A DNA stretch of 64,000 nucleotides from Patescibacteria group bacterium (GTDB taxonomy: Bacteria > Patescibacteriota > Patescibacteriia > XYB2-FULL-38-15), in NCBI GenBank assembly GCA_041650995.1, contig JBAZJZ010000001.1:227166-291165 (forward strand), given 5' to 3'. This document shows positions 4,129 to 61,798 of this stretch, piece after piece. Made by a program: the position numbers and the translations under genes. Below the pieces are notes generated by a model. That model was given only the letters and a program-made list of their open reading frames with translations, was not told where the DNA came from and did no database searches. Numbering within the stretch: the first letter of the stretch is position 1; the number at the start of each line of letters is the position of its first letter.

Positions 4129-5004
4129 ATGCGAAAACAGGAACCGCCTCTCGGCGATACGAGTGAATGTGCTCGCCTGACTAAGGCAGAACTCGTCAAT
4201 TTGGGTGTTGTACTTTCCGCCTTGCGCTCTTTTCGGGGTGACCGGCGGCAGCATATCGCCTATGTTACCATGCCAATCACCGGCGGCCGGCGCCTGTACG
4301 ACACTTTGAAAAAGCACGGCGCAAAAAGTGCTACTGAACTTGCGGTCAAGATCGGGGACGAGGCGTTTTACGGACTTGTGGTAAGGCCCAACATTGAAGA
4401 CGGGGTTGCTCTAGCTGATCGCCTCGGCAGCAGCAAGTCTCTGCTCTTTATCGCGCCTTCGGTTTTCGAAGCCAGGTGTTGGCAATGGTCGCAGGATGCC
4501 TACATGTCACTCTGGTATCGCGTTCTGGGCGAAATGGCTGGAGCGCACTACCTCGCGGATGGCTGGGAATACTGCGTCGGCGGCGTGAAAGAAGTAATGT
4601 TTTCTATGGCCATGCAGTGGCGTATCTTCAGGCGTTACAATATCCATGAGATGGCGAGAGCCTGGGGCCTGCAGAATTTCCTTCCCGGCATGAGCGCCAA
4701 AGAGGAAATGGCCGGGTTGGAGCGTATGTGGAGTATCCGCCTTTACGACGAGCGGGGCAAGGAACTTCGCATCGATCAAATTTTGGTAATGGTCGTTCGC
4801 GCAATCAAGGAGCTATCAAGAAACGGCTTGCCATACGAGGATCTGCTTGATCCCGCCTGGAACTTGAAAGCGATGCCAATCTTGTCGCCGATGCTTGGGG
4901 GCGGTTACGGAACTGTGCCGGCTATAACGAGTGTTTACCAAGAGGCGAGAGAAGAATTAGAAGTACTCCTTACCGCTCACAATCGTGGAGGGAAAAAGCG
5001 GTAA
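4129..5004 (+). CDS. hypothetical 291 aa protein, GC-rich (cassette A3)
   Basis: RBS AAAGGAGGAAGGGA. No recognisable family. Confidence 0.6.
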   Translation: MRKQEPPLGDTSECARLTKAELVNLGVVLSALRSFRGDRRQHIAYVTMPITGGRRLYDTLKKHGAKSATELAVKIGDEAFYGLVVRPNIEDGVALADRLGSSKSLLFIAPSVFEARCWQWSQDAYMSLWYRVLGEMAGAHYLADGWEYCVGGVKEVMFSMAMQWRIFRRYNIHEMARAWGLQNFLPGMSAKEEMAGLERMWSIRLYDERGKELRIDQILVMVVRAIKELSRNGLPYEDLLDPAWNLKAMPILSPMLGGGYGTVPAITSVYQEAREELEVLLTAHNRGGKKR

Positions 5005-16899: not shown

Positions 16900-17475
16900 T
16901 TACGCTGCCGCCTCCTTTTCCGGGAAGAAGATGGAAGCGTTGTCTCCGGGAAGGAAGCCCCTTGACTTGTCTCCAAGCCAAAGGGTGACGCGCGCGACGT
17001 TCTGCGCGCGATTGTCTTTCCAGACGATTCTCTTGGCGTAGGAGTGCTCATCGAACTCGGAAACCGGAGAAAGCGGCAGGATGTACTTCTGGCCGAAGAT
17101 CCTGACTTTCTTCAGTCCGTCCGTGACACACTCGATCCCGAGGTTCTGGCCTTGTGGAAAAACGACCACCCGCAAGTCGCGGAAGATACTCTCGTCTTGG
17201 GTGCTTGTCAAAACCAAAACGAGGCTGTAATGGCGCTCGAAGACGTAGAGCGCTAGGTATTCCGTTTCTTGGAGCCAGGTCTCATGCGTCGGCTCAGGTT
17301 CGAGGAATTCGATATCATCAACCGCCCTCGTGTACGGAGCGACGCAGGTTGCCGTGTGTCGCTTCTTGTTGCCCCTTCTGTCGCGCAAGGCGCGGATACA
17401 GACGGCAAGCGAAGAGACGAGCCAGGCGAAGAAAGTCGTGATCCCAGCCCAGATTCCGAGAAAGAACCGCTTCAT
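16900..17475 (-). CDS. hypothetical 191 aa protein with an N-terminal TM/signal segment, GC-rich (cassette C)
   Basis: RBS AAAGGAGGT sits 5 nt upstream of the ATG. The N-terminal hydrophobic stretch is FFLGIWAGITTFFAWLVSSLAV. Confidence 0.55.
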   Translation of the reverse strand: MKRFFLGIWAGITTFFAWLVSSLAVCIRALRDRRGNKKRHTATCVAPYTRAVDDIEFLEPEPTHETWLQETEYLALYVFERHYSLVLVLTSTQDESIFRDLRVVVFPQGQNLGIECVTDGLKKVRIFGQKYILPLSPVSEFDEHSYAKRIVWKDNRAQNVARVTLWLGDKSRGFLPGDNASIFFPEKEAAA

Positions 17476-31079: not shown

Positions 31080-32336
31080 TTACGGAAGATAATCTAGCGG
31101 ATTAACCGGAATGCCGTCAAGACGCGTTTCAAAATGTAAATGTGGTCCCGTGGTAAAAGGTCCAGCTCCCGGCGTGCCAGGCATACCGCCGGAAAGGCCA
31201 ATAACCTGCCCCCTGATCACATATGTGTCTTCCTGAACACTAATTTTTGAAACATGTCCGTAAACAGTAGAAATTCCGTTAGCGTGGATTAACATAATAT
31301 AACTATATCCCTTTTGTCCCCCATTTTTGACCTTGCCAACGTAACCTGGGGCAGCAGCCTTAATTTGCGTGCCCTGATAAGCACGAATATCAATTCCGGA
31401 ATGTTCAAAAATATATCGATAAGGATAATCTGAATCGTGAAAGGTCGCAGTGATTCCCCTACTCGGATCAACTGGCCAGGAAAGAATAACTGAGCCGGAT
31501 TGTCCATTAGAAAAAGATTTATCGCTTTCTTCCAATCGTTGCCGGATTGATTTTTCGAGTGAAGTAATTTCTGAGTTTATTTGTTCTTCTTCGTATTTTG
31601 ATTGTAATAGCCAATTTTGAAACTGTTTTTCGGAAGCGGCTGTTCTATCAAGCAATACCTCCTTATTCATTATTTGTTCTTCAAGCGAACTTTGCATCTT
31701 TACCATTTCATTTTTTGAATTTTCTGCCTCATTTTTTTTATTCTCCAATTGTTTCTTTTGCTCTTCCAATGATGTCTTTAATTCCTGAATTTGATTTAAG
31801 GATTTTTGCAAATCAGCCTGCAGATTTTCAACATATTTCATCTGATTAAAGACTTCGGAAAAATATTGGTTGGTCGCGAGTACTTCAAGATAACCTTTTT
31901 GGTCATTCTTGTAAATCAATCGCAGGAATTCGGATATCCTATCTTTATTTAAGGTAATTTGATTTTCTTTTTCCTGAATTTGCGTTTCTAGATTTCTTAT
32001 TTCCAAAGTTATTGTTTCTATCTTTTTTTCCGTAGCTTCAATGTCTATTTTAATTTTAGCTATTTTATTAGATAGAATAGCGAGTTCAGTTGAAAGACTA
32101 ACGGATTTACGTTGGGCTTCTTCAATTTGTCTTTTATAGCTTTCTGATTTTTTTTGTAAAGCTTCAATCTCCTTCTTTTTTGCGTCTATTTCTCTATCTA
32201 AGTTAGAAATTTCTTGTACAAGTCCATTGGCAGGGGTGTTTTCGGCTTTTGCAGTATGAATTAAAGAAAAATTAAAAGGAACAATCAAACAGATTGCCGT
32301 TATAATAATCACTATTTTCCCGATTTTTTGTACCAT
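31080..32336 (-). CDS. M23-family peptidoglycan endopeptidase (EnvC/LytM-like) with an N-terminal coiled coil
   Basis: HSGIDI...HANG...GPHLHFE zinc site. Confidence 0.8.
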   Translation of the reverse strand: MVQKIGKIVIIITAICLIVPFNFSLIHTAKAENTPANGLVQEISNLDREIDAKKKEIEALQKKSESYKRQIEEAQRKSVSLSTELAILSNKIAKIKIDIEATEKKIETITLEIRNLETQIQEKENQITLNKDRISEFLRLIYKNDQKGYLEVLATNQYFSEVFNQMKYVENLQADLQKSLNQIQELKTSLEEQKKQLENKKNEAENSKNEMVKMQSSLEEQIMNKEVLLDRTAASEKQFQNWLLQSKYEEEQINSEITSLEKSIRQRLEESDKSFSNGQSGSVILSWPVDPSRGITATFHDSDYPYRYIFEHSGIDIRAYQGTQIKAAAPGYVGKVKNGGQKGYSYIMLIHANGISTVYGHVSKISVQEDTYVIRGQVIGLSGGMPGTPGAGPFTTGPHLHFETRLDGIPVNPLDYLP

Positions 32337-35242: not shown

Positions 35243-35292
35243 TTAGGCAGTGAGGCGGAAGCCGGGGTCTCCGGGTAGTTGGGATTTTCTCC

Positions 35293-35715
35293 GTGGCTCG
35301 GAGGAGAGAGGAGAGTAAAATAATGGCAGCGGGAAATTCTCGAGTAAGGTATGGTTCAGGTCATTCGACAAGAGAAATGCCCGTTCTTCCGGATTGCCGA
35401 CGGGGCCATGTCTGTATTTCTTCGTCTCGTGGAGCGGGCCATTGTGGCCACTGTGATACGGATTTCATCTGTCCTTCATGCAAACATAATGGCATGAAGA
35501 CCAAGGATTGCGAACCGCCTGCCTTCATCCTGCAGTGTCCCCGATGTCAACACGAAGAACGGATTCACTGGGTTGAGTTTGACATCCAGTGTCCCCGATG
35601 CGGATGTAAAAACGCTTCCGGGACATATTCGAGGTTGCTGGAACCGATCATTCAATGCCCGGACTGCGGACCGAGTAGGGGGGGTGTCGGTCGTGCAGAA
35701 AAGGAGGGGAAATGA
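35293..35715 (+). CDS. multi-zinc-ribbon protein with five CxxC-type pairs, GC-rich (D1). The start is probably the ATG at 35323, behind a GGAGGAGAGAGGAGAG RBS.
   Basis: CGHC..CPSC, CPRC..CPRCGC and CPDCG pairs. Confidence 0.55.
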   Translation: MARRREESKIMAAGNSRVRYGSGHSTREMPVLPDCRRGHVCISSSRGAGHCGHCDTDFICPSCKHNGMKTKDCEPPAFILQCPRCQHEERIHWVEFDIQCPRCGCKNASGTYSRLLEPIIQCPDCGPSRGGVGRAEKEGK

Positions 35716-35933
35716 GCAAACTGCCTGGAAGGCAAGAAGAGGGAAAAATTCCATCCTGGTTTTTGGACGGTCAAGGCCAGATTGGTTGCACGGCAATCGG
35801 AGGCAATCCTCCGTCGACTCTTCTGCACATACCCCCTGTTTTAGAGGGTGTGGATGTGGAACAAGCCTGGTGGCCAAAAAATGGGCTGGGAGGCGATTAT
35901 GAGTTGCTTCCCTGGCTGACGCGCCCAATTTGA
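35712..35933 (+). CDS. hypothetical 73 aa protein (D2)
   Basis: Overlaps the D1 stop in an ATGA. RBS AAGGAGGGG. Confidence 0.45.
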   Translation: MSKLPGRQEEGKIPSWFLDGQGQIGCTAIGGNPPSTLLHIPPVLEGVDVEQAWWPKNGLGGDYELLPWLTRPI

Positions 35934-35954
35934 ACAAAAGAAGGGGAAGACAAG

Positions 35955-36221
35955 GTGGCAAGAAAATCTGGACGTCGTAAGAACATCTTCAGTGGTCTTG
36001 GAATCTCTCCTGAACAAGAAGCTGCGCTCAGAAGAAGGGCGCCGCCGCTTTCGGAGAGACGGTGGCTCGAGATACAACTGCTCATTGCGCGGGATGCGTT
36101 GGCCGACAGTTTTCCCCTGGAACCGATTTTTGTCGTTCCGCCAATCGTGGGACGCGAAGAGCGCAAGCCGCGAAGATCGATTCTGATCGACAACTTCTCC
36201 GGAGTAGAAAGGCTTCGCTAG
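35955..36221 (+). CDS. hypothetical 88 aa protein (D3), GTG start
   Basis: RBS GAAGGGGAAG. Arg-rich. Confidence 0.4.
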   Translation: MARKSGRRKNIFSGLGISPEQEAALRRRAPPLSERRWLEIQLLIARDALADSFPLEPIFVVPPIVGREERKPRRSILIDNFSGVERLR

Positions 36222-36234
36222 GGAGAAGAACTAC

Positions 36235-36462
36235 GTGAGTGAAGACGCTAATTTAAAAGAGCGCGAAGAAGCTTTGCGCCAACGACTTGTTACCTGGGCA
36301 GCACTTACTCCGGAGGAACGTCTGGATGCGAGGGTAAAAAGACTTCGTTTGTGGAAGCGACTCGAGGAAGAAGCCACCGGTGTCTGCAGTCGCGAAGCTG
36401 GTCTGCCCGGTGACTGGGATATTCCTTGCCGACCCGACGTGGAGTTTAAGGAGGTGGATTAG
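36235..36462 (+). CDS. hypothetical 75 aa charged helical protein (D4), GTG start
   Basis: RBS GGGAGAAG. Sequence EERLDARVKRLRLWKRLEEEA. Confidence 0.4.
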   Translation: MSEDANLKEREEALRQRLVTWAALTPEERLDARVKRLRLWKRLEEEATGVCSREAGLPGDWDIPCRPDVEFKEVD

Positions 36463-36493
36463 CCGACGCGAAAGAGGAAGCGTCGGTTTTTTT
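36463..36493 (+). terminator. intrinsic terminator CCGACGCG..CGCGTCGG followed by TTTTTTT
   Basis: Same stem family as 4041 and 5019. Confidence 0.55.
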
Positions 36494-36521
36494 ATTATCT
36501 GATTTTTGCTATAATTAAAGT

Positions 36522-37547
36522 ATGAAAGAGGCTTTATTTTACAAAAAATTATCCAAAAATCGCGTCCAGTGCCAGGCGTGTAGTCATTACTGTAAAATCG
36601 CGCCAGGCAATCGCGGGATTTGTGGCGTTCGGGAAAATCAGGACGGCAAACTTTATTCTTTGGTTTACGGAAAAATTGTCGCCAAAAATGTTGATCCAAT
36701 TGAGAAAAAACCACTTTTTCATTTTTTACCGGGAACAAAAAGTTTATCGATTGCTACGGTCGGCTGCAATTTCAGATGTCTCTATTGTCAGAACGCAGAC
36801 ATTGCCCAGATGCCGAAAGAAAGCGTTTTATTCCGAGAAGGCAACGTCCCAGGAATTGATCTGACGCCAAAAAATATTGTGAACGAGGCATTATTGATCG
36901 GCGCGCCGAGTATAGCTTATACTTATACCGAACCGACGATTTTTATTGAGTTTGCTCTGGAAACAATGAAGCTGGCGCGCCAGAAAAATTTAAAAAATAT
37001 CTGGGTGACAAACGGTTACGCGAGCAAAGAAGTTTTAAAAGAAGTAATCCCCTATCTTGACGCGGCCAATATTGATATAAAAGGTTTTACTGAAGAATTT
37101 TATAATAAAATTTGCGGCGCGAAGTTGCAGCCGGTTTTGGAAGCCGCAAAAATGATGAAGCGCGGCGGTGTTTGGGTAGAAATTACAACGCTTGTTGTGC
37201 CCGAGCAAAATGATACGAAAGAACATTTTGAAAGTATCGCTAAATTTATTGCTAAAAATTTGGGAAAAGAAACTCCGTGGCATATCTCTAAATTTTTTCC
37301 AACTTACAAATTAAAAAACTTGCCACCCACTCCCCAATCATCTTTGATTGAAGCCAGAGAGTTTGGAAAAAAATTCGGTTTGCGCTATATTTATTTAGGT
37401 AATGTGCCGCTCGCGGAAGGCGAAACAACTATTTGCCCAAAGTGCGGCGTTAAAATGATTGAACGTTCTGGTTATGAAATTGTCCGCTACGACAAAGACG
37501 GTAAATGCGCGAATTGTGGTGAAAATTTAAATTTAATTTTAAAATAA
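36522..37547 (+). CDS. amrS: AmmeMemoRadiSam-system radical SAM enzyme
   Basis: An N-terminal CxxCxxxC cluster, the radical SAM motif CNFRCLYC, and a C-terminal CPKCG..CANCG ribbon. Confidence 0.7.
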   Translation: MKEALFYKKLSKNRVQCQACSHYCKIAPGNRGICGVRENQDGKLYSLVYGKIVAKNVDPIEKKPLFHFLPGTKSLSIATVGCNFRCLYCQNADIAQMPKESVLFREGNVPGIDLTPKNIVNEALLIGAPSIAYTYTEPTIFIEFALETMKLARQKNLKNIWVTNGYASKEVLKEVIPYLDAANIDIKGFTEEFYNKICGAKLQPVLEAAKMMKRGGVWVEITTLVVPEQNDTKEHFESIAKFIAKNLGKETPWHISKFFPTYKLKNLPPTPQSSLIEAREFGKKFGLRYIYLGNVPLAEGETTICPKCGVKMIERSGYEIVRYDKDGKCANCGENLNLILK

Positions 37548-40628: not shown

Positions 40629-40654
40629 ACGGCCGAAAAAGCCGTGGTTTTTTT
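40629..40654 (+). terminator. clpB terminator ACGGC..GCCGT followed by TTTTTTT
   Basis: Stem with a T-tract. Confidence 0.5.
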
Positions 40655-40656
40655 AT

Positions 40657-40704
40657 AAAAAAAGACCCGACTCGGAAGATATTTCAGTCTCTTCACGAGT
40701 CGGG
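40657..40704 (-). terminator. minus-strand terminator CCCGACTCG..CGAGTCGGG for the island E operon
   Basis: An A-run precedes the stem on the + strand, which gives a T-tract on the - strand. Confidence 0.5.
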
Positions 40705-40722
40705 GTGACTCCAGTCTGGGAG

Positions 40723-40914
40723 TCAGCAGGGTCTAAACGCGATGGGTTCGCGCCGCCAGCCGAAACCGTCCGTCATCTTCTCGCTTCTCCCCCCTTCGCG
40801 AAGCGCGCCGTCCTGTGGTGCACCACAAAAGGCAATCGCAACCGGCGGTGGGGACGAAAAGAGCCGTGCCAGGTTTCGCGTGACGAAGTGCGCGAACAGT
40901 CCAGCACTTAGCAT
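40723..40914 (-). CDS. hypothetical 63 aa protein (E3), GC-rich
   Basis: RBS GGAGGAGG sits 6 nt upstream of the ATG. Confidence 0.35.
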   Translation of the reverse strand: MLSAGLFAHFVTRNLARLFSSPPPVAIAFCGAPQDGALREGGRSEKMTDGFGWRREPIAFRPC

Positions 40915-41016
40915 GCCGGACCTCCTCCGTTCCCTCGGATTTGGGTCAGTGTTAGGTTCCCGCCATTCTTCTTTCTTCGCCCGGGTTTCAGCGCGACGGC
41001 TGACGCTGTCCCGGGC

Positions 41017-41217
41017 TTATGCAGCGAGCGAGCACTCTCCCAAGATCACCTTGGTGAAGACCGCGTCGGACGTGCCTCGGGTTCCAGCTGTTGGCTGGTT
41101 CCCGTGCGCACCAAAAGTGCCAAGGAAGATGTCGGGCAAGGGTTCGAGCCAGAGATCCGGAACGAGCGTCACAGCGACCGCGACGCCAATCATCGGACCG
41201 AGGAAATCCACCATCAC
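41017..41217 (-). CDS. hypothetical 66 aa protein (E2), coupled to E1 by an ATGA overlap
   Basis: An internal ATG of the 126-aa track ORF overlaps the E1 stop. Confidence 0.35.
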   Translation of the reverse strand: MMVDFLGPMIGVAVAVTLVPDLWLEPLPDIFLGTFGAHGNQPTAGTRGTSDAVFTKVILGECSLAA

Positions 41218-41450
41218 CGCTCTCCTTTCGCGAATCGCCTTCTCTCCCCTACGTTCCTTATCTTGCCCCAAACCCACATGATTCCGGAGAGGAATGAGAA
41301 AAAGCACAGGAAGTATGGCCACAGCAAGATCACGATAATGATGAGGGAGACGTCTGACAGATTGGACTTCAATTCCTTCCGGAGTTGCTTCCAACATACC
41401 ACGACTACTAGGGCCGCGACGATCCCGACGATCCAGATTGTGGTTGCCAC
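41214..41450 (-). CDS. hypothetical 78 aa small membrane protein (E1), GTG start
   Basis: Two hydrophobic helices. RBS GAGAGGGAAG. Confidence 0.45.
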   Translation of the reverse strand: MATTIWIVGIVAALVVVVCWKQLRKELKSNLSDVSLIIIVILLWPYFLCFFSFLSGIMWVWGKIRNVGERRRFAKGER

Positions 41451-41513
41451 GTTACTTCCCTCTCTATTTCTACGCGGGCAAAATGCCTCGCGTTAAGGTT
41501 TTAACCTTTTGAT

Positions 41514-41542
41514 TAGATTAAGACAGGATTAATTTTCTGTCA
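41514..41542 (-). promoter_or_regulatory. promoter TTGACA-17-TAATCT on the minus strand for the E operon. Coordinates are approximate.
   Basis: Reverse complement of CTGTCAAGAG...AGATTA. Confidence 0.35.
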
Positions 41543-41599
41543 AGAGATAATTTATAAATAAAAAGAGCCGACCCAAGGTTTGACAACCTATGGATCGGC

Positions 41600-41860
41600 G
41601 GATGACGAGAGTTGGCGTCCTCGAAGTAGTACCGTCAGGTTGACGGTCGCTGAGTAGCGTCAAGGTGTTTGACTACACCGAGGACAGAAGCCTGGTGGCG
41701 CCGGTGGGGTCCGGTCAGGTCGACGTGGACGTCGGGGAAGCGAACATGTGATTTCCGCTGTCGCGCGAACGCGCGAACGGACCGTACCTGATTCCCATCT
41801 GATCCTCCTTCTTCCGTAGGGGGGTTGCCTTTCACCGTGGAAGACTTCCCCACCCCATGA
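41600..41860 (-). other. GC-rich structured transcription unit with three tandem palindromes, a 27-codon ORF (MGIRYGPFARSRDSGNHMFASPTSTST) behind a GAAGGAGGA RBS, and its own imperfect terminator at about 41560-41600
   Basis: The palindromes are CCGTCAggTTGACGG, GACGCT..AGCGTC and GGTGTttgactACACC. Confidence 0.3.
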
Positions 41861-41866
41861 TGTCAA

Positions 41867-41895
41867 TATATTAACACAAGATTGTGTTGTTGTCA
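41867..41895 (-). promoter_or_regulatory. promoter TTGACA-17-TAATAT on the minus strand driving the structured unit
   Basis: It sits back to back with the + strand extended -10 (TGgTAAAAT) of the next gene. Confidence 0.35.
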
Positions 41896-41997
41896 AGAGG
41901 AAAATGTGGTAAAATAGAATCAGCAGTCATTTTGAATTATGGTTTTTGTTTTTAACTTAGCCATAATTCCCGATTCATAATTCATGACTAAAAACCC

Positions 41998-48542: not shown

Positions 48543-48580
48543 TAAGAGAAATGATTTTGTAGTTCGGGTGAGGATTTGGG

Positions 48581-48973
48581 CTAGCCCCTCCATGAAACGT
48601 CGGTCAGGGGCACGCTGACCTCTACCTGGCGTTGCGGCCAGCCGTTCTCCGGACCGATCCTCCTGGCCGTCTCGCCCATCGTCTGGACGAATCGGCGAAG
48701 CGCGGAGTCGCTCCGACCCTCCCTCGTTTCGAAGGGAGGCGCGAGGTGCTCCAGAAGATCGGGCGAGAAGCCAATCGTGATCTGGAGCGGATCCTTGATG
48801 CCGTGTTCCTGGCTCGCAGGGATCGAGCTGTCGGGCATCACCGTGATGTCTTCCGGTTTCAATTTCAACCCGAAGTTGAAACGGCGGCATGCTTCGCGGA
48901 GCATCCGCTCGAGCCGTCCACAGCTGAACTCGTGGCTTCCTCCTCCTTTGACCAAAAATTTCACTTTGCCCAT
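48581..48973 (-). CDS. hypothetical 130 aa protein, GC-rich (cassette F)
   Basis: RBS GGGAAGGAGAAAG. The alternative 178-aa and 137-aa frames are R-rich or low complexity. Confidence 0.5.
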   Translation of the reverse strand: MGKVKFLVKGGGSHEFSCGRLERMLREACRRFNFGLKLKPEDITVMPDSSIPASQEHGIKDPLQITIGFSPDLLEHLAPPFETREGRSDSALRRFVQTMGETARRIGPENGWPQRQVEVSVPLTDVSWRG

Positions 48974-49111: not shown

Positions 49112-50815
49112 TTATTTTTTTAACTTTTGAATAAATATATCACAAAAAATTATATATCCAATTCCCAAAGGATGGTTCAAATATGGACTAAAAAAATTTG
49201 TGGCTAAAAGGGCGGCTAATCCGGCCAAAAACCCGAATGCTATAAATACCCCAGAACGCCCCAAACCCCAGCCAGAACGCCAAATTTTAGCGATAAAAAG
49301 AAGATAAACAACTAGTCCGGCCAAGCCAATTTTAAGCATTATATCCAAATATCCCCATTCAAAAGCGTAGGTTGTAAAAATCCCCCCTGGATTAACCTGA
49401 ACCGCGCGAGGATCACTGCTTTTGTAAGTGACTGTTGTCCCAAACCCTGAACCAATAATTGGATGTTTTATAATTGCTTGTCCAAGCGGTGGCAAAAGAT
49501 CCCAACGGCTCCGGACCGCGGCTTCGTCTAAATCGGTCAGGCGGTCGCTAAACATTGAAGCAAAAGAAATTCTTCCCGGCTCGGGAAATGGAAATTGCGC
49601 GGTCGCGAAAGTCGCGGACAAAGAAATTACTAAAATGGCGAGGCCGGCTAAACCAATTTTTACAATTTTTCCCAAAGAAAATTTTTGAATAATTAAAATT
49701 ATCAAAAGTGCGAGAAGTCCGACCGCGAGCCCAACCCAAAAACTTCGAGAAAAACTGATCAAAACCGAAGTCAATGATCCAATCGCCAATAACCAATATC
49801 TCTTGTCCTTTTTGTTTTGCCAAATTAAGAAAGCGGAAAAAATAAAAAACCCAATCAGTAAATAAATCTGCGACTGGAAAAATATTCGGTAAAAACCGCT
49901 TGGCATTAATGTAACTTCTCCGATTAAAAATTGCCGGAGCCAACGATAGATCGGAAGAACTGCGACTTCAAAACCATGAGAAAAAATGTAAAGGAAGAAA
50001 AAAGTTTTGATAATAATAACCGTAACGGCGGCGGTGAAAATTTGTAAAACATTTTCAATTTGTTCGCGCGATTTTATAACATCAACGAGCGGGAAAATAA
50101 TGCCAAAATAAAGCCAGCCATTAAAATCAAAAAATAAATTTTGGAAAGAGTTGCCGCGAATTAATCCCCAAATAAATCCCCAGATAATAAATGCAAACAA
50201 TATCCAATACCATTTATTTAGCGAAAATTTAAAATCCCGTTTTTCAATTCTTCTATATACCCAAACTGCCATCACAATTAAAAATAAGGCAATGCGCAGA
50301 GAGACCGAAGTTCCGCCTAAATCAAAATAAAATAAATATCCTTTTGAACCAATAAACAATTCTGCTAATAGGATATAAATTCCATATTCCAATTTTTCCA
50401 AAGTTAAAACTAAAGTCAGGCCAAGAATAACAAAAAATGATACTTTATTAAAGAGCGGGAAAAAATACGCGACAAAAGACAAAATTAACGCGAAAGAAAC
50501 GAAGAGCAGCGAGGTTTTAAAATATTTTCCGAATAAGTTCATATCTTGACAATTTATATTTTTATTGATAGATTGTAGTGTAGCCTGAACAATCTCGTTT
50601 AGGCCAGAAGGAGGGTATAAGGGATGAATTCCCGACTCGAAAGACTCAAGGTGACGATCGCGAAGTGCGAGAAGATCGAGGAGATTTTCGCCAAGCATCG
50701 CGTTCGCGGAACGGAGCCCACCCACTACGACGACGTGATCGCCGGCTTCGACACTCCGGCGCGAAGCGGCTTTCTCTTGAGGTGGGATCTCGTGGTTAAG
50801 GGTTCGGCCGGCCAC
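49112..50815 (-). CDS. O-antigen ligase/polymerase-like (Wzy_C-type) polytopic membrane protein. The true start is probably ATG at about 50542 (MNLFGKYF).
   Basis: About 12 TM segments. The N-terminal 95 aa of the track ORF are GC-rich and antisense to cassette H. Confidence 0.6.
   Translation of the reverse strand: MAGRTLNHEIPPQEKAASRRSVEAGDHVVVVGGLRSANAMLGENLLDLLALRDRHLESFESGIHPLYPPSGLNEIVQATLQSINKNINCQDMNLFGKYFKTSLLFVSFALILSFVAYFFPLFNKVSFFVILGLTLVLTLEKLEYGIYILLAELFIGSKGYLFYFDLGGTSVSLRIALFLIVMAVWVYRRIEKRDFKFSLNKWYWILFAFIIWGFIWGLIRGNSFQNLFFDFNGWLYFGIIFPLVDVIKSREQIENVLQIFTAAVTVIIIKTFFFLYIFSHGFEVAVLPIYRWLRQFLIGEVTLMPSGFYRIFFQSQIYLLIGFFIFSAFLIWQNKKDKRYWLLAIGSLTSVLISFSRSFWVGLAVGLLALLIILIIQKFSLGKIVKIGLAGLAILVISLSATFATAQFPFPEPGRISFASMFSDRLTDLDEAAVRSRWDLLPPLGQAIIKHPIIGSGFGTTVTYKSSDPRAVQVNPGGIFTTYAFEWGYLDIMLKIGLAGLVVYLLFIAKIWRSGWGLGRSGVFIAFGFLAGLAALLATNFFSPYLNHPLGIGYIIFCDIFIQKLKK
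50546..50574 (+). promoter_or_regulatory. promoter TTGACA-17-TAGATT for cassette H. It abuts the ligase start codon on the other strand.
   Basis: Seen in sequence. Confidence 0.45.
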
Positions 50816-51094
50816 AGAGAAAACCTCCTGGGGCGAGAACCGACCTGCATCGAGATTTCTCTCTCGGGCGGGGAACGGGGTGACCGGCTGATCATCCTCT
50901 CCTACCTCCCGGAGACCCGCGGCTGGACGATCGAAGGATCGACCGATATCGGTCTGGACGGGATTCCAGCCATTCGCAACCTGGCCGCCGACTGCAGGCT
51001 TTCGGCCGGCGAGGAGCGCCAGATCGGTGAGGACGAAGCGATGAAGATCATCGCCACGCTCGCCGTTTTCTATAAGAGCCAGCCCGTGGGCTAG
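50624..51094 (+). CDS. hypothetical 156 aa protein, GC-rich (cassette H)
   Basis: RBS GAAGGAGGG. Confidence 0.55.
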   Translation: MNSRLERLKVTIAKCEKIEEIFAKHRVRGTEPTHYDDVIAGFDTPARSGFLLRWDLVVKGSAGHRENLLGREPTCIEISLSGGERGDRLIILSYLPETRGWTIEGSTDIGLDGIPAIRNLAADCRLSAGEERQIGEDEAMKIIATLAVFYKSQPVG

Positions 51095-51121
51095 ACCTCG
51101 ACGGACGGAGGAACGAACTAC

Positions 51122-52010: not shown

Positions 52011-52712
52011 TTATAAATGATGTTTTGCTTTGATAATTTTCAAAGCGGCACTGTATTTTTTTATCGCCTTTGGCGCCCAACCAATTTTTTCCCAAGGAAT
52101 TTTATACATAAAACTTGGCAGCCAAGAAGAAATTCCGGTTCGGCGAGGTTTTACAGTAAATAAAAATTCGGGCACCCAAATACCAACGTGTCCTTGCTCA
52201 GCCATCGTTAGCCACAAATCCCAATCCTGAAATTTTTTTAAACTTTCATCCCAGCCGGGAAAGTGTTCGCGACGAATAAGTGTTGTAGAAGTAATATAAT
52301 TCATTTTCTTAAGCGCCTCGCCATCAAACTCATGAAGACCAAATTTTTTTCTGCCCCACATAAAAGATGAATAGGCAAAAGATGCTTCGGGATGATTTAA
52401 AAGCGCGTCTAACATTTTTTGAAGCATTTCCGGTTTGGCGTCAATATCGGCATCAGCAAAAATTATAAACTGGCTGGTTGATTCCCTAAATCCCCTATTT
52501 CTTGCTGCCGGCGCGCCAAGATTTTTTTGGTTAATAATTTTTATTCGGTCTTTATATTTTTCCAAAACTTCAGCCGTGTTATCCGTTGAACCATCATTAA
52601 CTACAATAATTTCAAAATCTTTGAATGTTTGGTTAAACAATGATAAAAGACACGCTTCAATCGTGTCTCCGTGCTGGTAGGTTGGGATTATTACGCTTAT
52701 TTTTGGGAACAT
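52011..52712 (-). CDS. GT2-family glycosyltransferase
   Basis: ISVIIPTYQ..IIVVNDGSTDNT. Confidence 0.75.
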   Translation of the reverse strand: MFPKISVIIPTYQHGDTIEACLLSLFNQTFKDFEIIVVNDGSTDNTAEVLEKYKDRIKIINQKNLGAPAARNRGFRESTSQFIIFADADIDAKPEMLQKMLDALLNHPEASFAYSSFMWGRKKFGLHEFDGEALKKMNYITSTTLIRREHFPGWDESLKKFQDWDLWLTMAEQGHVGIWVPEFLFTVKPRRTGISSWLPSFMYKIPWEKIGWAPKAIKKYSAALKIIKAKHHL

Positions 52713-52742: not shown

Positions 52743-52789
52743 AAAAACAAGATAAAAAGATCCACCAGGGCACAGCCAGTAGTGGATCA
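52743..52789 (-). terminator. minus-strand terminator GATCCAC..GTGGATC with a T-run
   Basis: Downstream of the GC-rich paralog. Confidence 0.5.
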
Positions 52790-52818
52790 GATGGAAAATA
52801 TTCGGTTGTACTGCTCGG

Positions 52819-53280
52819 CTACCTCACGGGTTGGAATTGGATCTTGCCCTCATCCCCGGTTCTGCTCACGATCTCCATGTAGTAGAGTTCGATCTCGAGC
52901 CTGGGGCAACGCCGTTGCAGCGTATCTCGCGCGGCTCGCATATCGTCCTCATGGGCCGCTCTCTCCGCTTCAAGGCTCGGGAACGCCTCCGAACCGCCCC
53001 AGGCCTTGCAGTCGCGATGGGCGATCAAGATGACCCGCGTAGCTTGGTGGTGATGGTCAGAGACCCTACTGAACGCACCCAGGAAAACGTTCCTTGTTTC
53101 TCGATCGGTGTAGACCCTCGGCCCAGAAGGAAAAGTGTAGGGCGTGTAGAATAGAATGCCCAGCTCGTGCCTCAAGAAATCCTGGTGCTGCTGGACAAAC
53201 CGATAGTCCAGACAGAAGACGGCTACTACCGGGACTCTCAGTTTGAGATCAACCAGGTACAACTTACTTGCTTCTCTCAT
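52819..53280 (-). CDS. beta-carbonic-anhydrase-like zinc-site protein, the GC-rich copy (cassette I)
   Basis: CLDYR (CxDxR) and HRDC (HxxC). RBS AAGGAGGAGGG. Homologous to the adjacent native gene. Confidence 0.55.
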   Translation of the reverse strand: MREASKLYLVDLKLRVPVVAVFCLDYRFVQQHQDFLRHELGILFYTPYTFPSGPRVYTDRETRNVFLGAFSRVSDHHHQATRVILIAHRDCKAWGGSEAFPSLEAERAAHEDDMRAARDTLQRRCPRLEIELYYMEIVSRTGDEGKIQFQPVR

Positions 53281-53372
53281 CTTCCCTCCTCCTTAACTCC
53301 TCCCCCTGTTTATTTTTTCAAAAAATTTAAAAAAATAAACCGAGAGACGTTATCTTTCGGCAAAGAATATTT

Positions 53373-53807
53373 TTACTCAACTGGATTAAATTCTATGTTT
53401 TCACCAATAATTTCCGCGTAAAACATACTGACCGAAATTTTTGGGAATTGCTCAAGCAAAATATCTCGGACAGTTTGTAAATCTTTTATTTGCGTTGCTT
53501 CTTCAGTCGCCAGATCCGGAAAAGCTACTGATCCACCGTAAGCGCCGCAATCGCGATGGGCAATTAAAATAATTTTTTCAATATGGTGCAAATTAATTGA
53601 CACATTTTTGAGCGCTTCAAGAAAAACGTTACGCGTTGGTTCGCTGACTAAGGCTTTTGGTCCGCCCGGAAAAACATATTGATCAAATTCTTCAAAGCCA
53701 AGTTCGCGCGAAATAAATTGTTCATGCTGAGTTCGAAATCTTGGATCAAGACAATAGATCGCGGCTACTGGAACATGATGAAAATTTTTAAAAGGATATT
53801 GTTGCAT
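53373..53807 (-). CDS. beta-carbonic-anhydrase-like zinc-site protein, the native AT-rich copy
   Basis: CLDPR and IAHRDCGAYGG. It aligns with 52819..53280 along its full length. Confidence 0.55.
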   Translation of the reverse strand: MQQYPFKNFHHVPVAAIYCLDPRFRTQHEQFISRELGFEEFDQYVFPGGPKALVSEPTRNVFLEALKNVSINLHHIEKIILIAHRDCGAYGGSVAFPDLATEEATQIKDLQTVRDILLEQFPKISVSMFYAEIIGENIEFNPVE

Positions 53808-53819
53808 AATATAAATAAA

Positions 53820-54266
53820 TTATTCTTCAACTTTAATGCTCGGCGCGGTGCGTGCCCGGCTTCTTTTTCTCGCGACCTTAAGACGCGCCAATTCGCGTTC
53901 AAGACTAGCCGCTGCATCAGCGTATTTTTCCGCATCAACATGTTTTTCTTCAAGAACTTTTTGCGCTCGCTCTCTGGCTTTTTCAATTTCTACTTCCACA
54001 AGTTCTTCCGCCTTTTCCGCGGTATCGGCCAAAATCAAAACTTTATCTCCAGTAACTTCAATAAATCCGCCAGAACAAGACATGGCGATTTCCTCTTTAT
54101 CTTTTTTGGCAACAATCTCTCCTGGACGAAGCATGGCAATCAAGGGAATGTGATTTGGCAAAATCGTAATCTCTCCTTCCGCCGTAGGAATAGTTATTTG
54201 ATCAACTTCATCTTTTAAGACAACTCTTTCGGGAGTAATGATTTCAAATTTTAATTTGGAGGCCAT
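53820..54266 (-). CDS. atpC: F1 ATP synthase epsilon subunit
   Basis: Position and sequence. Confidence 0.85.
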   Translation of the reverse strand: MASKLKFEIITPERVVLKDEVDQITIPTAEGEITILPNHIPLIAMLRPGEIVAKKDKEEIAMSCSGGFIEVTGDKVLILADTAEKAEELVEVEIEKARERAQKVLEEKHVDAEKYADAAASLERELARLKVARKRSRARTAPSIKVEE

Positions 54267-55686: not shown

Positions 55687-56595
55687 CTATTCCAGGGCCG
55701 CCTTGCCACTTACAATTTCCATAATTTCTTTTGTGATAGCCGACTGGCGAACTTGATTATACATTAAAGTTAAATCAAATATCATGTCTTCGGCAGAATC
55801 AGAAGCATTCTTCATCGCCACCATTCTGGCGGAATGTTCCGAAGCGTTAGATTCCAAAATTGCCTGAAAAATTTGCATTTCCACCATTTTCGGTAGCATA
55901 TATTCCAAAACTTGATCGGGCGACGGTTCAAATAAAAATTCATATTCTTTTTCTTCACGCTTTTCCGGCGTTTTTTCTTCACTCACTTTTCCCAAATCCG
56001 CGTCACGCTCCCGAGAAAACGGCAAGAGTTTTAAAATTCTCGGGCGCTGGGAAATTGTAGAAATAAAATCAGTATAAGCCAGATAAACTTCGTCGTACTT
56101 TCCCGCGGAAAAATCATCAATCACAATTTTCGCAATCGCTCTAATCTCCGCGAGCCGTGTCACGCTGGATAAATTCGTAAAATCCGCCACGAGTTTTATT
56201 TTGTGGCGCGCCGTAAAATCCCGGCTTTTTTTCCCGACAGTTAAAAACTCCATTTCAATTCCCTTGTCCATTAAACCTTTGGAAAATTCCGCGATTTTTT
56301 TAATAATTTGCGCGTTAAATCCTCCGCACAAACCGCGATCAGAAGAAACCAAAACCACGCAAACCTTTTTAACTTTATCTTTTTTAACTAAGAAAGAATG
56401 AAGTTTAGAATCGGTTTTTCCCGACAAATCAGAAATCAAAGACCAAGCCCGGTTGGCGTAATCGCGAGTGCGAAGCGTTGCCTGCTGGGCTTTTCTCATT
56501 TTTGAAGCCGCAACCATTTCCATCGCCTTGGTAATTTTTTTGGTGTTAGTGATGGATTTGATACGTCTTCGGATGATTTTTGTAGAAACGGCCAT
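55687..56595 (-). CDS. atpG: F1 ATP synthase gamma subunit
   Basis: Position and sequence. Confidence 0.85.
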   Translation of the reverse strand: MAVSTKIIRRRIKSITNTKKITKAMEMVAASKMRKAQQATLRTRDYANRAWSLISDLSGKTDSKLHSFLVKKDKVKKVCVVLVSSDRGLCGGFNAQIIKKIAEFSKGLMDKGIEMEFLTVGKKSRDFTARHKIKLVADFTNLSSVTRLAEIRAIAKIVIDDFSAGKYDEVYLAYTDFISTISQRPRILKLLPFSRERDADLGKVSEEKTPEKREEKEYEFLFEPSPDQVLEYMLPKMVEMQIFQAILESNASEHSARMVAMKNASDSAEDMIFDLTLMYNQVRQSAITKEIMEIVSGKAALE

Positions 56596-60703: not shown

Positions 60704-61798
60704 CTATCGAAAATGGGCTGCGTTGCATGCCCACCTCGCGTATCCCTCCCACACGGGTGAACATTCCAGTCCTCCTTCCTTGAGTAGCTGAATGAACTTC
60801 TTCCTTCGATTTTTGGACGGAGGAAGAAGGCTGATTTTGCTTGCGCCACATTCTGGGTTGATTCGCGAGATCCTCACCAAGATGTGCCTTCTCTGGGAAT
60901 GGAGTAAGCGGATTAATTTTTCCGCGTGAGAATCGGAATCGTTAACCCCTTGAATCAGTGCGTAGTGGATCACGAACTTTACGCGTACTGCTTCTGCGTA
61001 CGCTGTTCCTAGATCCACAATTTCCTGAACGGGGTCCCTGGCAGGAATGAAGTGTCTCCGTTCTTCATCAGTAGGAAAATGCATGGAGAAGCGGAGTTGG
61101 ACGCGGTACTCGTCGCAGAACCTCACGTCATTGAGCATCTGCTGGATACCACTCGCAATGCCTGATGTGCAGAGAGAGAAGAATACTTGAACGCCACGCT
61201 TGGCAAAAATCTCATCAAGTCTCGTAACGGTCTCCTTTACGGCCTCATACCGCAAGAGTGGCTCACCGGCAGCCGAGAAGGAAATCACGAGACACTTCCT
61301 CTCTCTTCTCCAGAAGCGGTTTGCGAGTGGCGATTTCCTGAGGATCAAGCCAATCAAGTTCAACATTTCGAATGGGCTGAGGTGATAACAGGAGGTAAAC
61401 CTCCCAATGTCACAGAACGAGCAACCACCCTGCCAACCTTGCTTCCTGCCCCACGCGGCCAATTCACAACCGCAGGACACTGGCACCTGAAGATTGGCGT
61501 GAACCCGCTTGTAGGGCAGATCCCGATAGATGATCGGCGTAATATTACGCCTCGTGACTCTCGCCCACAATTCTTCAGCTCCGGGTCGATCGTTAGAACC
61601 CTGGATGAGGCTCCGGTTTCTCACGATTTCCAGATCCTTACCTCCAAGTTCGCAGAGGATTTCGGCCCTCTTGCGGCATTCTTCTCTGGATTCCATTTCT
61701 TCACCATATGGCTCCACTTTTTCTCTGTAATCCACCCTCCGGCTATTCCCTAAGTGGTCCGCCGAAATTCGTCTTCCTGACGTTCTTCGGTAGACCAC
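60704..61798 (-). CDS. radical-SAM-like enzyme with a CX14CX2C cluster motif and GEPLL, GC-rich (cassette G). The start is uncertain: GTG at 61798, or in-frame ATG at about 61696.
   Basis: CELAAWGRKQGWQGGCSFCDIG and ISFSAAGEPLL. The rest of the window is AT-rich. Confidence 0.5.
   Translation of the reverse strand: MVYRRTSGRRISADHLGNSRRVDYREKVEPYGEEMESREECRKRAEILCELGGKDLEIVRNRSLIQGSNDRPGAEELWARVTRRNITPIIYRDLPYKRVHANLQVPVSCGCELAAWGRKQGWQGGCSFCDIGRFTSCYHLSPFEMLNLIGLILRKSPLANRFWRRERKCLVISFSAAGEPLLRYEAVKETVTRLDEIFAKRGVQVFFSLCTSGIASGIQQMLNDVRFCDEYRVQLRFSMHFPTDEERRHFIPARDPVQEIVDLGTAYAEAVRVKFVIHYALIQGVNDSDSHAEKLIRLLHSQRRHILVRISRINPECGASKISLLPPSKNRRKKFIQLLKEGGLECSPVWEGYARWACNAAHFR

Follow-up and report, generated by a model that had tools for sequence, protein, structure and literature searches.

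The 64,000-nucleotide stretch of Patescibacteria DNA analyzed here (the window) includes, directly 3′ of the F1Fo ATP synthase operon (atpB-E-F-H-A-G-D-C), two minus-strand ORFs that encode related proteins of the Pro_CA_2 family. The family is already known; what is unusual is that its two copies are paralogs in two regimes. The base composition of these genes tracks the slot that they occupy, or its expression context, and not their clade or ancestry. Taken as a whole, the locus is best explained by two anciently diverged paralogs that differ in regime and not in origin, an account that we consider probable. A wider reading, which is offered tentatively, is that this genome contains two gene styles: a bulk of AT-rich, often short-leadered genes without Shine-Dalgarno (SD) sequences, and a minority of small, GC-rich, separately terminated genes with extended SDs, whose composition is actively maintained in place. 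Pro_CA_2 genes would have moved between these styles more than once, changing composition as they did so, the tandem copies would be the same enzyme in two translation regimes, and GC-richness would mark a regulatory class instead of a foreign ancestry. The elements of the locus, with their window coordinates, are as follows.

53820..54266, minus strand: atpC (F1 epsilon subunit, PF02823), the upstream neighbor that anchors the locus and the last canonical gene of the atp operon.

53373..53807, minus strand: paralog 1, Pro_CA_2, 144 amino acids, AT-rich, without SD, inside the atp operon (slot 1).

53329..53361, minus strand: terminator-like hairpin and U-run after paralog 1 (GCCGAAAG..CUCUCGG UUUAUUUUUUU), −9.4 kcal/mol, z −2.35.

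53297..53351, minus strand: leader hairpin of 22 bp, conserved among species, downstream of slot 1 (atp operon) and upstream of the SD of paralog 2.

53288..53294, minus strand: SD core (AAGGAGG) for paralog 2, 7 nt upstream of the ATG, within a purine-rich leader (GGGGGAGGAGUUAAGGAGGAGGGAAG).

52819..53280, minus strand: paralog 2, Pro_CA_2, 153 amino acids, GC-rich, preceded by an SD and followed by a terminator of its own (slot 2, the slot that is conserved).

52753..52788, minus strand: intrinsic terminator of paralog 2 (GAUCCAC...GUGGAUC, then UUUUUA), located by a terminator scan (52782..52762) and by folding.

Paralog 1 starts 12 nt past the atpC stop codon. A preliminary description of this DNA had reported two unusually short ORFs that align along their whole length; their coordinates and lengths were confirmed, and the significance of the alignment held, BLASTP of paralog 1 against paralog 2 giving 127 bits and E 2e-43 with 60 of 138 positions identical (43%) over nearly the whole length. 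The shared motifs that it quoted are present, except that the GC-rich copy reads FPSGP where FPGGP had been given for both. At NCBI the two proteins are both labelled ‘MAG: carbonic anhydrase [Patescibacteria group bacterium]’. The tandem pair is found in two assemblies, ENA ERZ27247363 k141_674185 (a 543-kb contig) and Logan SRR8542065, and also in four further species (L008, L011, L061 and L063); its presence in a second assembly and in these species rules out an assembly chimera. Third codon positions are only 30% identical between paralog 1 and paralog 2, a value that excludes recent gene conversion or gene-conversion tracts between them.

The gene order atpD-atpC-[slot]-GT2-GT2 is common to about 16 related species, among which atpD is 93-96% identical where the full gene was compared. 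A slot-2 Pro_CA_2 gene with flanks homologous at the nucleotide level is present in 16 of the 16 related species sampled, and these flanks are homologous regardless of the coding type between them. The extended SD and own terminator of slot 2 likewise occur throughout these species, and in the core group the leader has the motif ...ACGUCUCUCGGUUUAUUUUUUU...GAAAAAAUAAA.GGGGAGGGGUUAGGAGGAG, with a terminator-bearing 3′ UTR throughout. Orthologs of the 153-amino acid protein (153-type) occupy the same slot in seven other species, with 62-74% identity and GC3 values that all lie between 0.58 and 0.71. The AT-rich in-operon copy, on the other hand, is found in six of the 16 species, is swapped for a SnoaL/DUF4440 gene in two (L004 and L005), and is missing in eight (L010, L013, L015-L017, and L064-L066). 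Of the two, it is the GC-rich copy that is conserved; the AT-rich one is optional.

An exhaustive search by phmmer with the 153-amino acid query, run over 1.84 billion cluster representatives, identified the cluster of 144-type proteins (P0031) as the best match outside the query's own cluster (E 4e-28), followed by P0045 (E 4e-18), a Patescibacteria gene of ordinary composition located 2 nt after atpC. The 153-type and 144-type proteins form sister clades with bootstrap values of 92% and 99.5%, respectively, in trees that were built by neighbor joining only and in which long-branch effects may misplace the fast-evolving 153 clade. In the same kind of tree the in-operon copies were monophyletic in 0 of 200 bootstraps. 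Four species (L015, L016, L017 and L065) have a 144-type protein in slot 2, and these proteins are about 69% identical to the AT-rich copy of the window and group with it (70% bootstrap). The history of the locus may have included a duplication, after which the slot copy diverged fast, and at least one more change of position by a 144-type gene.

The opposite composition of the two copies, already remarked on in the preliminary description, is evident from a GC content of 0.38 and GC3 of 0.28 for the 144-amino acid gene versus 0.56 and 0.69 for the 153-amino acid gene; the flanking genes have GC3 values of 0.33-0.34. With its distinct codon usage, the 153-amino acid gene has the atypical composition by which foreign genes are usually recognized. 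When copies are sorted by position, GC3 is 0.27-0.44 for the in-operon copies and 0.58-0.71 for the core-group slot-2 copies, with 0.48 for the divergent slot copy of L014. The 144-type genes that occupy slot 2 are GC-rich as well, with GC3 values of 0.61-0.66. Pro_CA_2 genes of distant Patescibacteria and of the outgroup have no GC excess.

The GC-rich genes as a set have one codon usage (TTC 0.75 versus 0.13, ATC 0.73 versus 0.16, AAG 0.65 versus 0.15, and Arg for Lys), which reflects a general shift toward GC. Two-fold synonymous sites of the 153-type orthologs have a GC content of about 0.65, versus 0.19-0.25 in the flanking genes. Between species, these sites of the 153-type orthologs differ with p = 0.39, where the maximum is 0.46, so that they are about 85% of the way to randomization, and the polarized counts give a GC-to-AT/AT-to-GC ratio of 2.07, equal to p/(1-p) as expected for saturated sites. 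We give roughly even weight to the view that selection on the transcript, or some biased process, keeps the GC-richness where it is and that it is not a decaying relic. The strongest argument for such an in-place, position-linked cause, though no proof, is the composition contrast within the 144 clade. Three other causes were considered and rejected. Translational selection does not agree with the rise of G- and C-ending codons in all families, the fall of T-ending codons in the four-fold ones and the shift from Lys to Arg; adenine-specific mutagenesis of the DGR type does not agree with A and T being equally depleted at third positions; and a structured RNA as the cause of the GC-rich islands is discounted by the lack of Rfam or tRNA matches, by GC3 being far above GC2, and by protein homology, which indicates that they are coding.

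GC-richness is accompanied by a different kind of translation start. When positions −20 to −4 were scanned for a match to AAGGAGGT, about 50 AT-rich genes of the window had none and showed A/T-rich upstream regions, and several of these SD-less genes carry a TATAAT box 5-12 nt before the ATG. Paralog 2 has a match of 7 nt, and its leader is kept in 13 species. It belongs to a group of small GC-rich genes with SDs of 6-8 nt and their own terminator hairpins (4129..5004, 16900..17475, 48581..48973, 50624..51094 and 52819..53280). Counted over the window and the loci of seven relatives, SDs of at least 6 nt precede 16 of 40 GC-rich ORFs versus 2 of 169 others (odds ratio 56, Fisher p 2e-11), a count in which wrong-frame ORFs inflate the SD-less GC-rich class. 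This distribution, in which SDs are nearly absent from the bulk of the genes and strong on a few, suggests that the SD-led minority constitutes a separate translation regime.

The preliminary description was also correct in attributing to the GC-rich copy its own SD (AAGGAGG, 53288..53294) and terminator (52753..52788). The GATCCAC/GTGGATC stem of the latter is present in 15 of the 16 related species including the basal ones, while in L066 the 3′ arm, GTGGAT, is all that is left. Upstream of the SD, after the atp operon, is the leader hairpin, the only strong inverted repeat found at slot 2. Its RNAalifold consensus from 13 core-group species includes compensatory changes at 10 of the 22 pairs, 92.6% of the cells are paired versus 47-63% when the partner is slid, and the observed values were reached in 0 of 500 shuffles; its minimum free energy is −26.3 kcal/mol (z −3.6). 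The hairpin that follows paralog 1 may act as a terminator; its 3′ half doubles as the 5′ arm of the leader hairpin, so that only one of the two structures can form at a time. The leader hairpin may be a site of processing, may regulate expression, or may work as a switch in which it and the terminator-like hairpin replace each other. A scan for a sigma-70 promoter of paralog 2 found none, so that its transcript may arise by read-through and processing at the 22-bp stem; a duplex of this length has the size of an RNase III substrate, which would be consistent with processing. As an alternative to processing, the stem may gate the expression of paralog 2. The case for paralog 2 as an independent unit comes from the SD, the terminator and the hairpin. 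The two paralogs may be differentially regulated.

The explanation that competes best with an in-place cause, although we regard it as unlikely, is that the GC-rich slot-2 alleles and the other GC-rich genes led by SDs derive from a relative that is GC-rich and uses SDs, or from an unsampled mobile element, and have been slowly ameliorating since. They would have entered before the species radiation or by repeated homologous replacement through the conserved flanks. The codon and amino acid usage of the GC-rich set does resemble that of a moderately to strongly GC-rich genome, with Lys replaced by Arg and GC raised uniformly at two-fold and four-fold sites, and a strong SD is alien to the style of this genome. 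A two-state amelioration model can be fitted by hand calculation, with an ancestor of about 0.9 GC at two-fold sites and a relaxation of about 0.47 per lineage; the fit needs relaxation to be among the slowest in the background range, and suits a single ancient import. In the same direction, another slot gene reaches a GC3 of 0.84 (L015), some GC-rich ORFs vary in presence, such as one between atpA and atpG in L004 and L008, and gene and species distances are mildly discordant.

Against this origin, no homologue from a GC-rich context that is closer than the local AT-rich clade was found among the 1.84 billion representatives. The nearest clusters, the AT-rich clade of the same lineage and then the Patescibacteria in-operon gene, include no donor lineage. 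All the members of the 153 clade that were looked up are in the same AT-rich syntenic context, and the slot-2 gene, at the same locus in every related species sampled, lacks the patchy presence of an acquired gene. With about 70% amino acid identity to the AT-rich in-operon copies with which they group, the GC-rich 144-type genes of slot 2 cannot have spent long in a GC-rich host. Neither an integrase nor a transposase is found among the genes called within 10 kb on each side, there are no flanking direct repeats, and a search of IMG/VR viral contigs for the Pro_CA_2 pair and for the GC-rich ORF 50624..51094 found no relatives. PHROG and PADLOC searches of the GC-rich ORFs gave no matches, save a PHROG Fe-S domain for 60704..61798, and the GC-rich ORFs other than paralog 2 have no Pfam matches. 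Paralog 2 does not have the features of an integron cassette either: the gene tables list no integrase, and its 3′ hairpin with a T-run acts as a terminator and not as an attC recombination site. A 3′-end motif shared by GC-rich genes, CGAACTAC, was considered as a recombination site and rejected, since its three occurrences versus 0.75 expected were matched by 4 of 100 shuffles. Another motif, GAACGGTACAAC, showed no enrichment at the 3′ ends of GC-rich genes.

Both proteins are members of PF20393 (Pro_CA_2, ‘Putative carbonic anhydrase’), with scores of 34.4 bits for the 153-amino acid protein and 42.6 bits for the 144-amino acid protein against a gathering threshold of 30 bits and matches that cover model positions 6 to 115/116 of 125. 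With the canonical Pro_CA profile, PF00484 (gathering threshold 25.7 bits), the 144-amino acid protein scored 14.2 bits, below the threshold, and the 153-amino acid protein gave no match. All the homologues of the pair that were found have the same Pfam assignment, PF20393. The assignment of the pair as β-carbonic anhydrase-like (β-CA-like) in the preliminary description is right, and Pfam and NCBI already encode it. So is the zinc signature on which it was based: in an alignment of 41 family members the C, D and R of CxDxR and the H and C of HxxC are invariant (C23, D25, R27, H88 and C91 in the 153-amino acid protein; C19, D21, R23, H84 and C87 in the 144-amino acid protein). Three more residues do not vary: an additional His, the Asp of HRDC and a Glu. 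In the 153 clade a Lys or Arg takes the place of the Gly beside the Cys ligand (HRDCKA), a change that could affect catalysis or even prevent it.

A profile search of PDB sequences gave marginal matches to TvaCA1 (6y04, E 0.087) and to 3las (E 0.19), with both zinc-ligand motifs in register. AlphaFold2 models of the 153- and 144-amino acid proteins are confident, with pLDDT values of 94.2 and 96.2, respectively. β-CAs are the top Foldseek matches of the 153-amino acid model, true CAs are most of the structural neighbors of the Pro_CA_2 models, and these models have the β-CA α/β fold, with no sign of a non-CA fold. Both the fold and the metal-site signature match those of β-CAs, and the proteins belong to a known, uncharacterised sister family; no relevant report on PF20393, Pro_CA_2, carbonic anhydrases of Patescibacteria or SD use in Patescibacteria was found in the searchable literature. 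The ratio dN/dS, which the preliminary description had proposed to calculate, is about 0.1-0.2 among the orthologs of each copy, indicating purifying selection on both, and therefore both are functional genes. Given this selection and the intact Cys-Asp-Arg...His-x-x-Cys site, both copies are, as judged from their sequences, most likely active hydratases. Their substrate would by default be CO2; COS or CS2 is possible because the hydrolases for these compounds have the same fold.

To a second alternative we assign a somewhat lower probability than to an import from a GC-rich source. A β-CA fold with a Cys2His site could serve a non-CA function, either the hydrolysis of COS or CS2 or the zinc or redox regulation of the F1Fo ATPase, with the copies differing in substrate or partner. 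However, the full catalytic quintet is invariant, including the Asp-Arg dyad that is specific to β-CA-type hydration chemistry, and the structural neighbors are mostly true CAs.

The origin suggested in the preliminary description was a foreign cassette beside a native AT-rich homolog, by xenologous duplication or as targeted complementation. Such a cassette, taken as a recent arrival or as the complement of a failing native gene, would account for a sharp composition contrast limited to one gene with its own SD and terminator, but is very improbable: eight species with housekeeping dS values of about 0.7-2 have this gene with identical composition and flanks of the same kind, the nearest relative of the GC-rich copy is the AT-rich clade, its sister, GC-richness follows the slot even in 144-types, the AT-rich copy keeps all its catalytic residues under purifying selection and therefore nothing needs complementing, and it is the GC-rich copy that is always present and the AT-rich copy that is dispensable.

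The family was also surveyed by a pattern scan keyed on the CA motif, with one genome per GTDB species. This census identified 50 Pro_CA_2 loci, nearly all from Patescibacteria; one (L019) bears the label of a DPANN archaeon, Aenigmatarchaeota. The gene is downstream of atpC on the same strand and within about 1.1 kb in 37 of the 50 genome loci; most of these are taken as directly adjacent to atpC because several atpC matches span only the N-terminal domain. Since the scan was keyed on the CA motif, the linkage to atpC is no selection artefact. No mention of it was found in the searchable literature. Such a gene order points to a functional tie between Pro_CA_2 and the ATP synthase, and the location at the end of the F1Fo operon suggests that energy conservation in these reduced, probably symbiotic cells is linked to bicarbonate/protons or to CO2.

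In the model that we propose for two paralogs of common origin in two regimes, Pro_CA_2 proteins would be minimal zinc proteins with a β-CA fold, mostly from Patescibacteria (CPR) and habitually encoded at the tail of the F1Fo operon, and the paralogs would be isoforms of one ATP synthase-linked enzyme. Paralog 1, an add-on in some species, would be co-transcribed with atpC and translated in the default SD-less mode from host-like AT-rich codons. Paralog 2, which is always present at the locus, would be a hairpin-gated, SD-led, separately terminated unit. GC-richness belongs to slot 2, in common with the other SD-led small genes, and persists although synonymous sites have become largely randomized between species. 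Composition that deviates from that of the genome is routinely taken as a sign of horizontal transfer; this gene, with its native sister, indicates that composition can follow genomic or expression context across speciation. The case calls for caution when genomic islands are called in Patescibacteria, and provides a handle on other GC-rich, SD-led genes of unknown function.

Phage ‘morons’ and single-gene islands consist of one gene with its own expression signals and a composition unlike that of its neighbors. Paralog 2 is likewise a single gene with its own signals and deviating composition; unlike them, it is present with the same flanks in all the related species sampled, its nearest relatives are native, and mobility genes, border repeats and viral homologues are absent. 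As for the proteins, Cab-type and other short β-CAs (Methanothermobacter thermautotrophicus Cab, 1g5c; Trichomonas vaginalis TvaCA1, 6y04; Streptococcus mutans, 3las) are 166-182 amino acids long versus 144-153 for the window pair, which is only 17-18% identical to them and below the PF00484 threshold. Pro_CA_2 differs from them further in its extra invariant His, Asp and Glu, and the 153 clade in having Lys or Arg for the Gly that follows the Cys ligand. COS hydrolase (3vrk) and CS2 hydrolase (3ten) are enzymes with the β-CA fold and other substrates; compared with them, the window proteins show no sign of a narrowed hydrophobic substrate tunnel, and the neighborhood comprises the ATP synthase and glycosyltransferases, with no sulfur metabolism genes nearby. 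With respect to PF20393 there is no difference at the family level, as both proteins are members of this family, which is itself only predicted.

The closest parallel to the two translation regimes is found in the Bacteroidia. In these bacteria the protein bS21 sequesters the anti-SD, rpsU has an extended SD, translation is SD-blind, and few genes are SD-led (PMC7797042, PMC9976891, PMC13000453). No rRNA genes were found in the window, and the likeness is one of SD pattern alone. As in Bacteroidia, most genes here lack an SD and have A/T-rich upstream regions, and a small minority have strong, extended SDs. The SD-led minority differs in that it consists of small, fast-evolving GC-rich genes, including the Pro_CA_2 paralog, and not of rpsU. 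If confirmed, this would extend the specialised-ribosome principle of Bacteroidia to Patescibacteria.

The gene for the minimal beta-carbonic-anhydrase-like zinc protein (Pro_CA_2, PF20393) follows atpD-atpC in the same orientation in 37 of the 50 loci, each from a different GTDB species, that were collected by the Pro_CA_2 pattern scan (L011-L060; examples are L020-L041, L043-L046, L048, L050, L054 and L059). This conserved link between ATP synthase and a beta-CA-like gene spans Parcubacteria, Saccharibacteria, Kerfeld-, Moran-, Doudna- and Kuenenbacteria. Several of the public MAG records, among them L015, L016, L021 and L033, are labelled 'uncultured Gammaproteobacteria' or 'Bdellovibrionales'; they show Patescibacteria-type synteny and their atpD is 80-94% identical to that of the window, so that the labels look like mislabels.

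The gene content of the atp locus varies among the relatives at the following places.

L004:9446-9865 and L005:1322-1741, AT-rich SnoaL/DUF4440-like gene of 139 aa, in the in-operon slot after atpC
L004:6130-6507 and L008:6208-6561, minus strand, GC-rich ORF of 117-125 aa led by a Shine-Dalgarno (SD) sequence, antisense between atpA and atpG
L014:3924-4367, third, very divergent type of Pro_CA_2 copy, in slot 2

The SnoaL/DUF4440-like gene replaces the 144-aa Pro_CA_2 copy in L004 and L005. At the atpA-atpG position L010 has a small SWEET/PQ-loop gene instead of the GC-rich ORF, and the window has no antisense ORF in its 16-nt gap. The slot-2 protein of L014 shows 45% identity to the 153-aa protein, its gene has a GC3 of 0.48, and it reads CSDWK where the others have CxDxR; this replacement of the dyad Arg by Lys may reflect degeneration or a new function.

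The window includes other GC-rich ORFs and stretches.

4129..5004, plus strand, GC-rich ORF with strong SD and its own terminator
16900..17475, minus strand, the same features
48581..48973, minus strand, the same features
50624..51094, plus strand, the same features
60704..61798, minus strand, GC-rich ORF with a PHROG match
about 35290..36500 and about 40650..41900, GC 0.53-0.62, several overlapping putative ORFs on both strands

GC3 of the five GC-rich ORFs is 0.58-0.78, and TTGACA-N17-TATAAT promoters are found at several of them. Neither Pfam nor PADLOC gave a match for any of the five, PHROG gave none for the first four, and Pfam gave none for the overlapping putative ORFs of the two stretches. 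Relatives carry orthologs of ORF 50624..51094 in the corresponding place, and these evolve fast (35-88% identity). Two GC-rich genes have the 8-mer CGAACTAC in their 3' UTRs (8-mer at 48559..48566, minus strand, and at 51114..51121, plus strand), which was considered as a possible recombination site. The window holds three matches where 0.75 would be expected; 4 of 100 shuffles did as well, and the matches are probably due to chance.

Across the whole window about 50 AT-rich genes lack an upstream SD match. In several of them a TATAAT-like box is located just 5-12 nt 5' of the ATG, a spacing that suggests mRNAs with no leader or a very short one; examples of these genes or boxes are at 36522(+), 31080..32336(-), 46686(+), 52011..52712(-), 30047(+) and 55687..56595(-).
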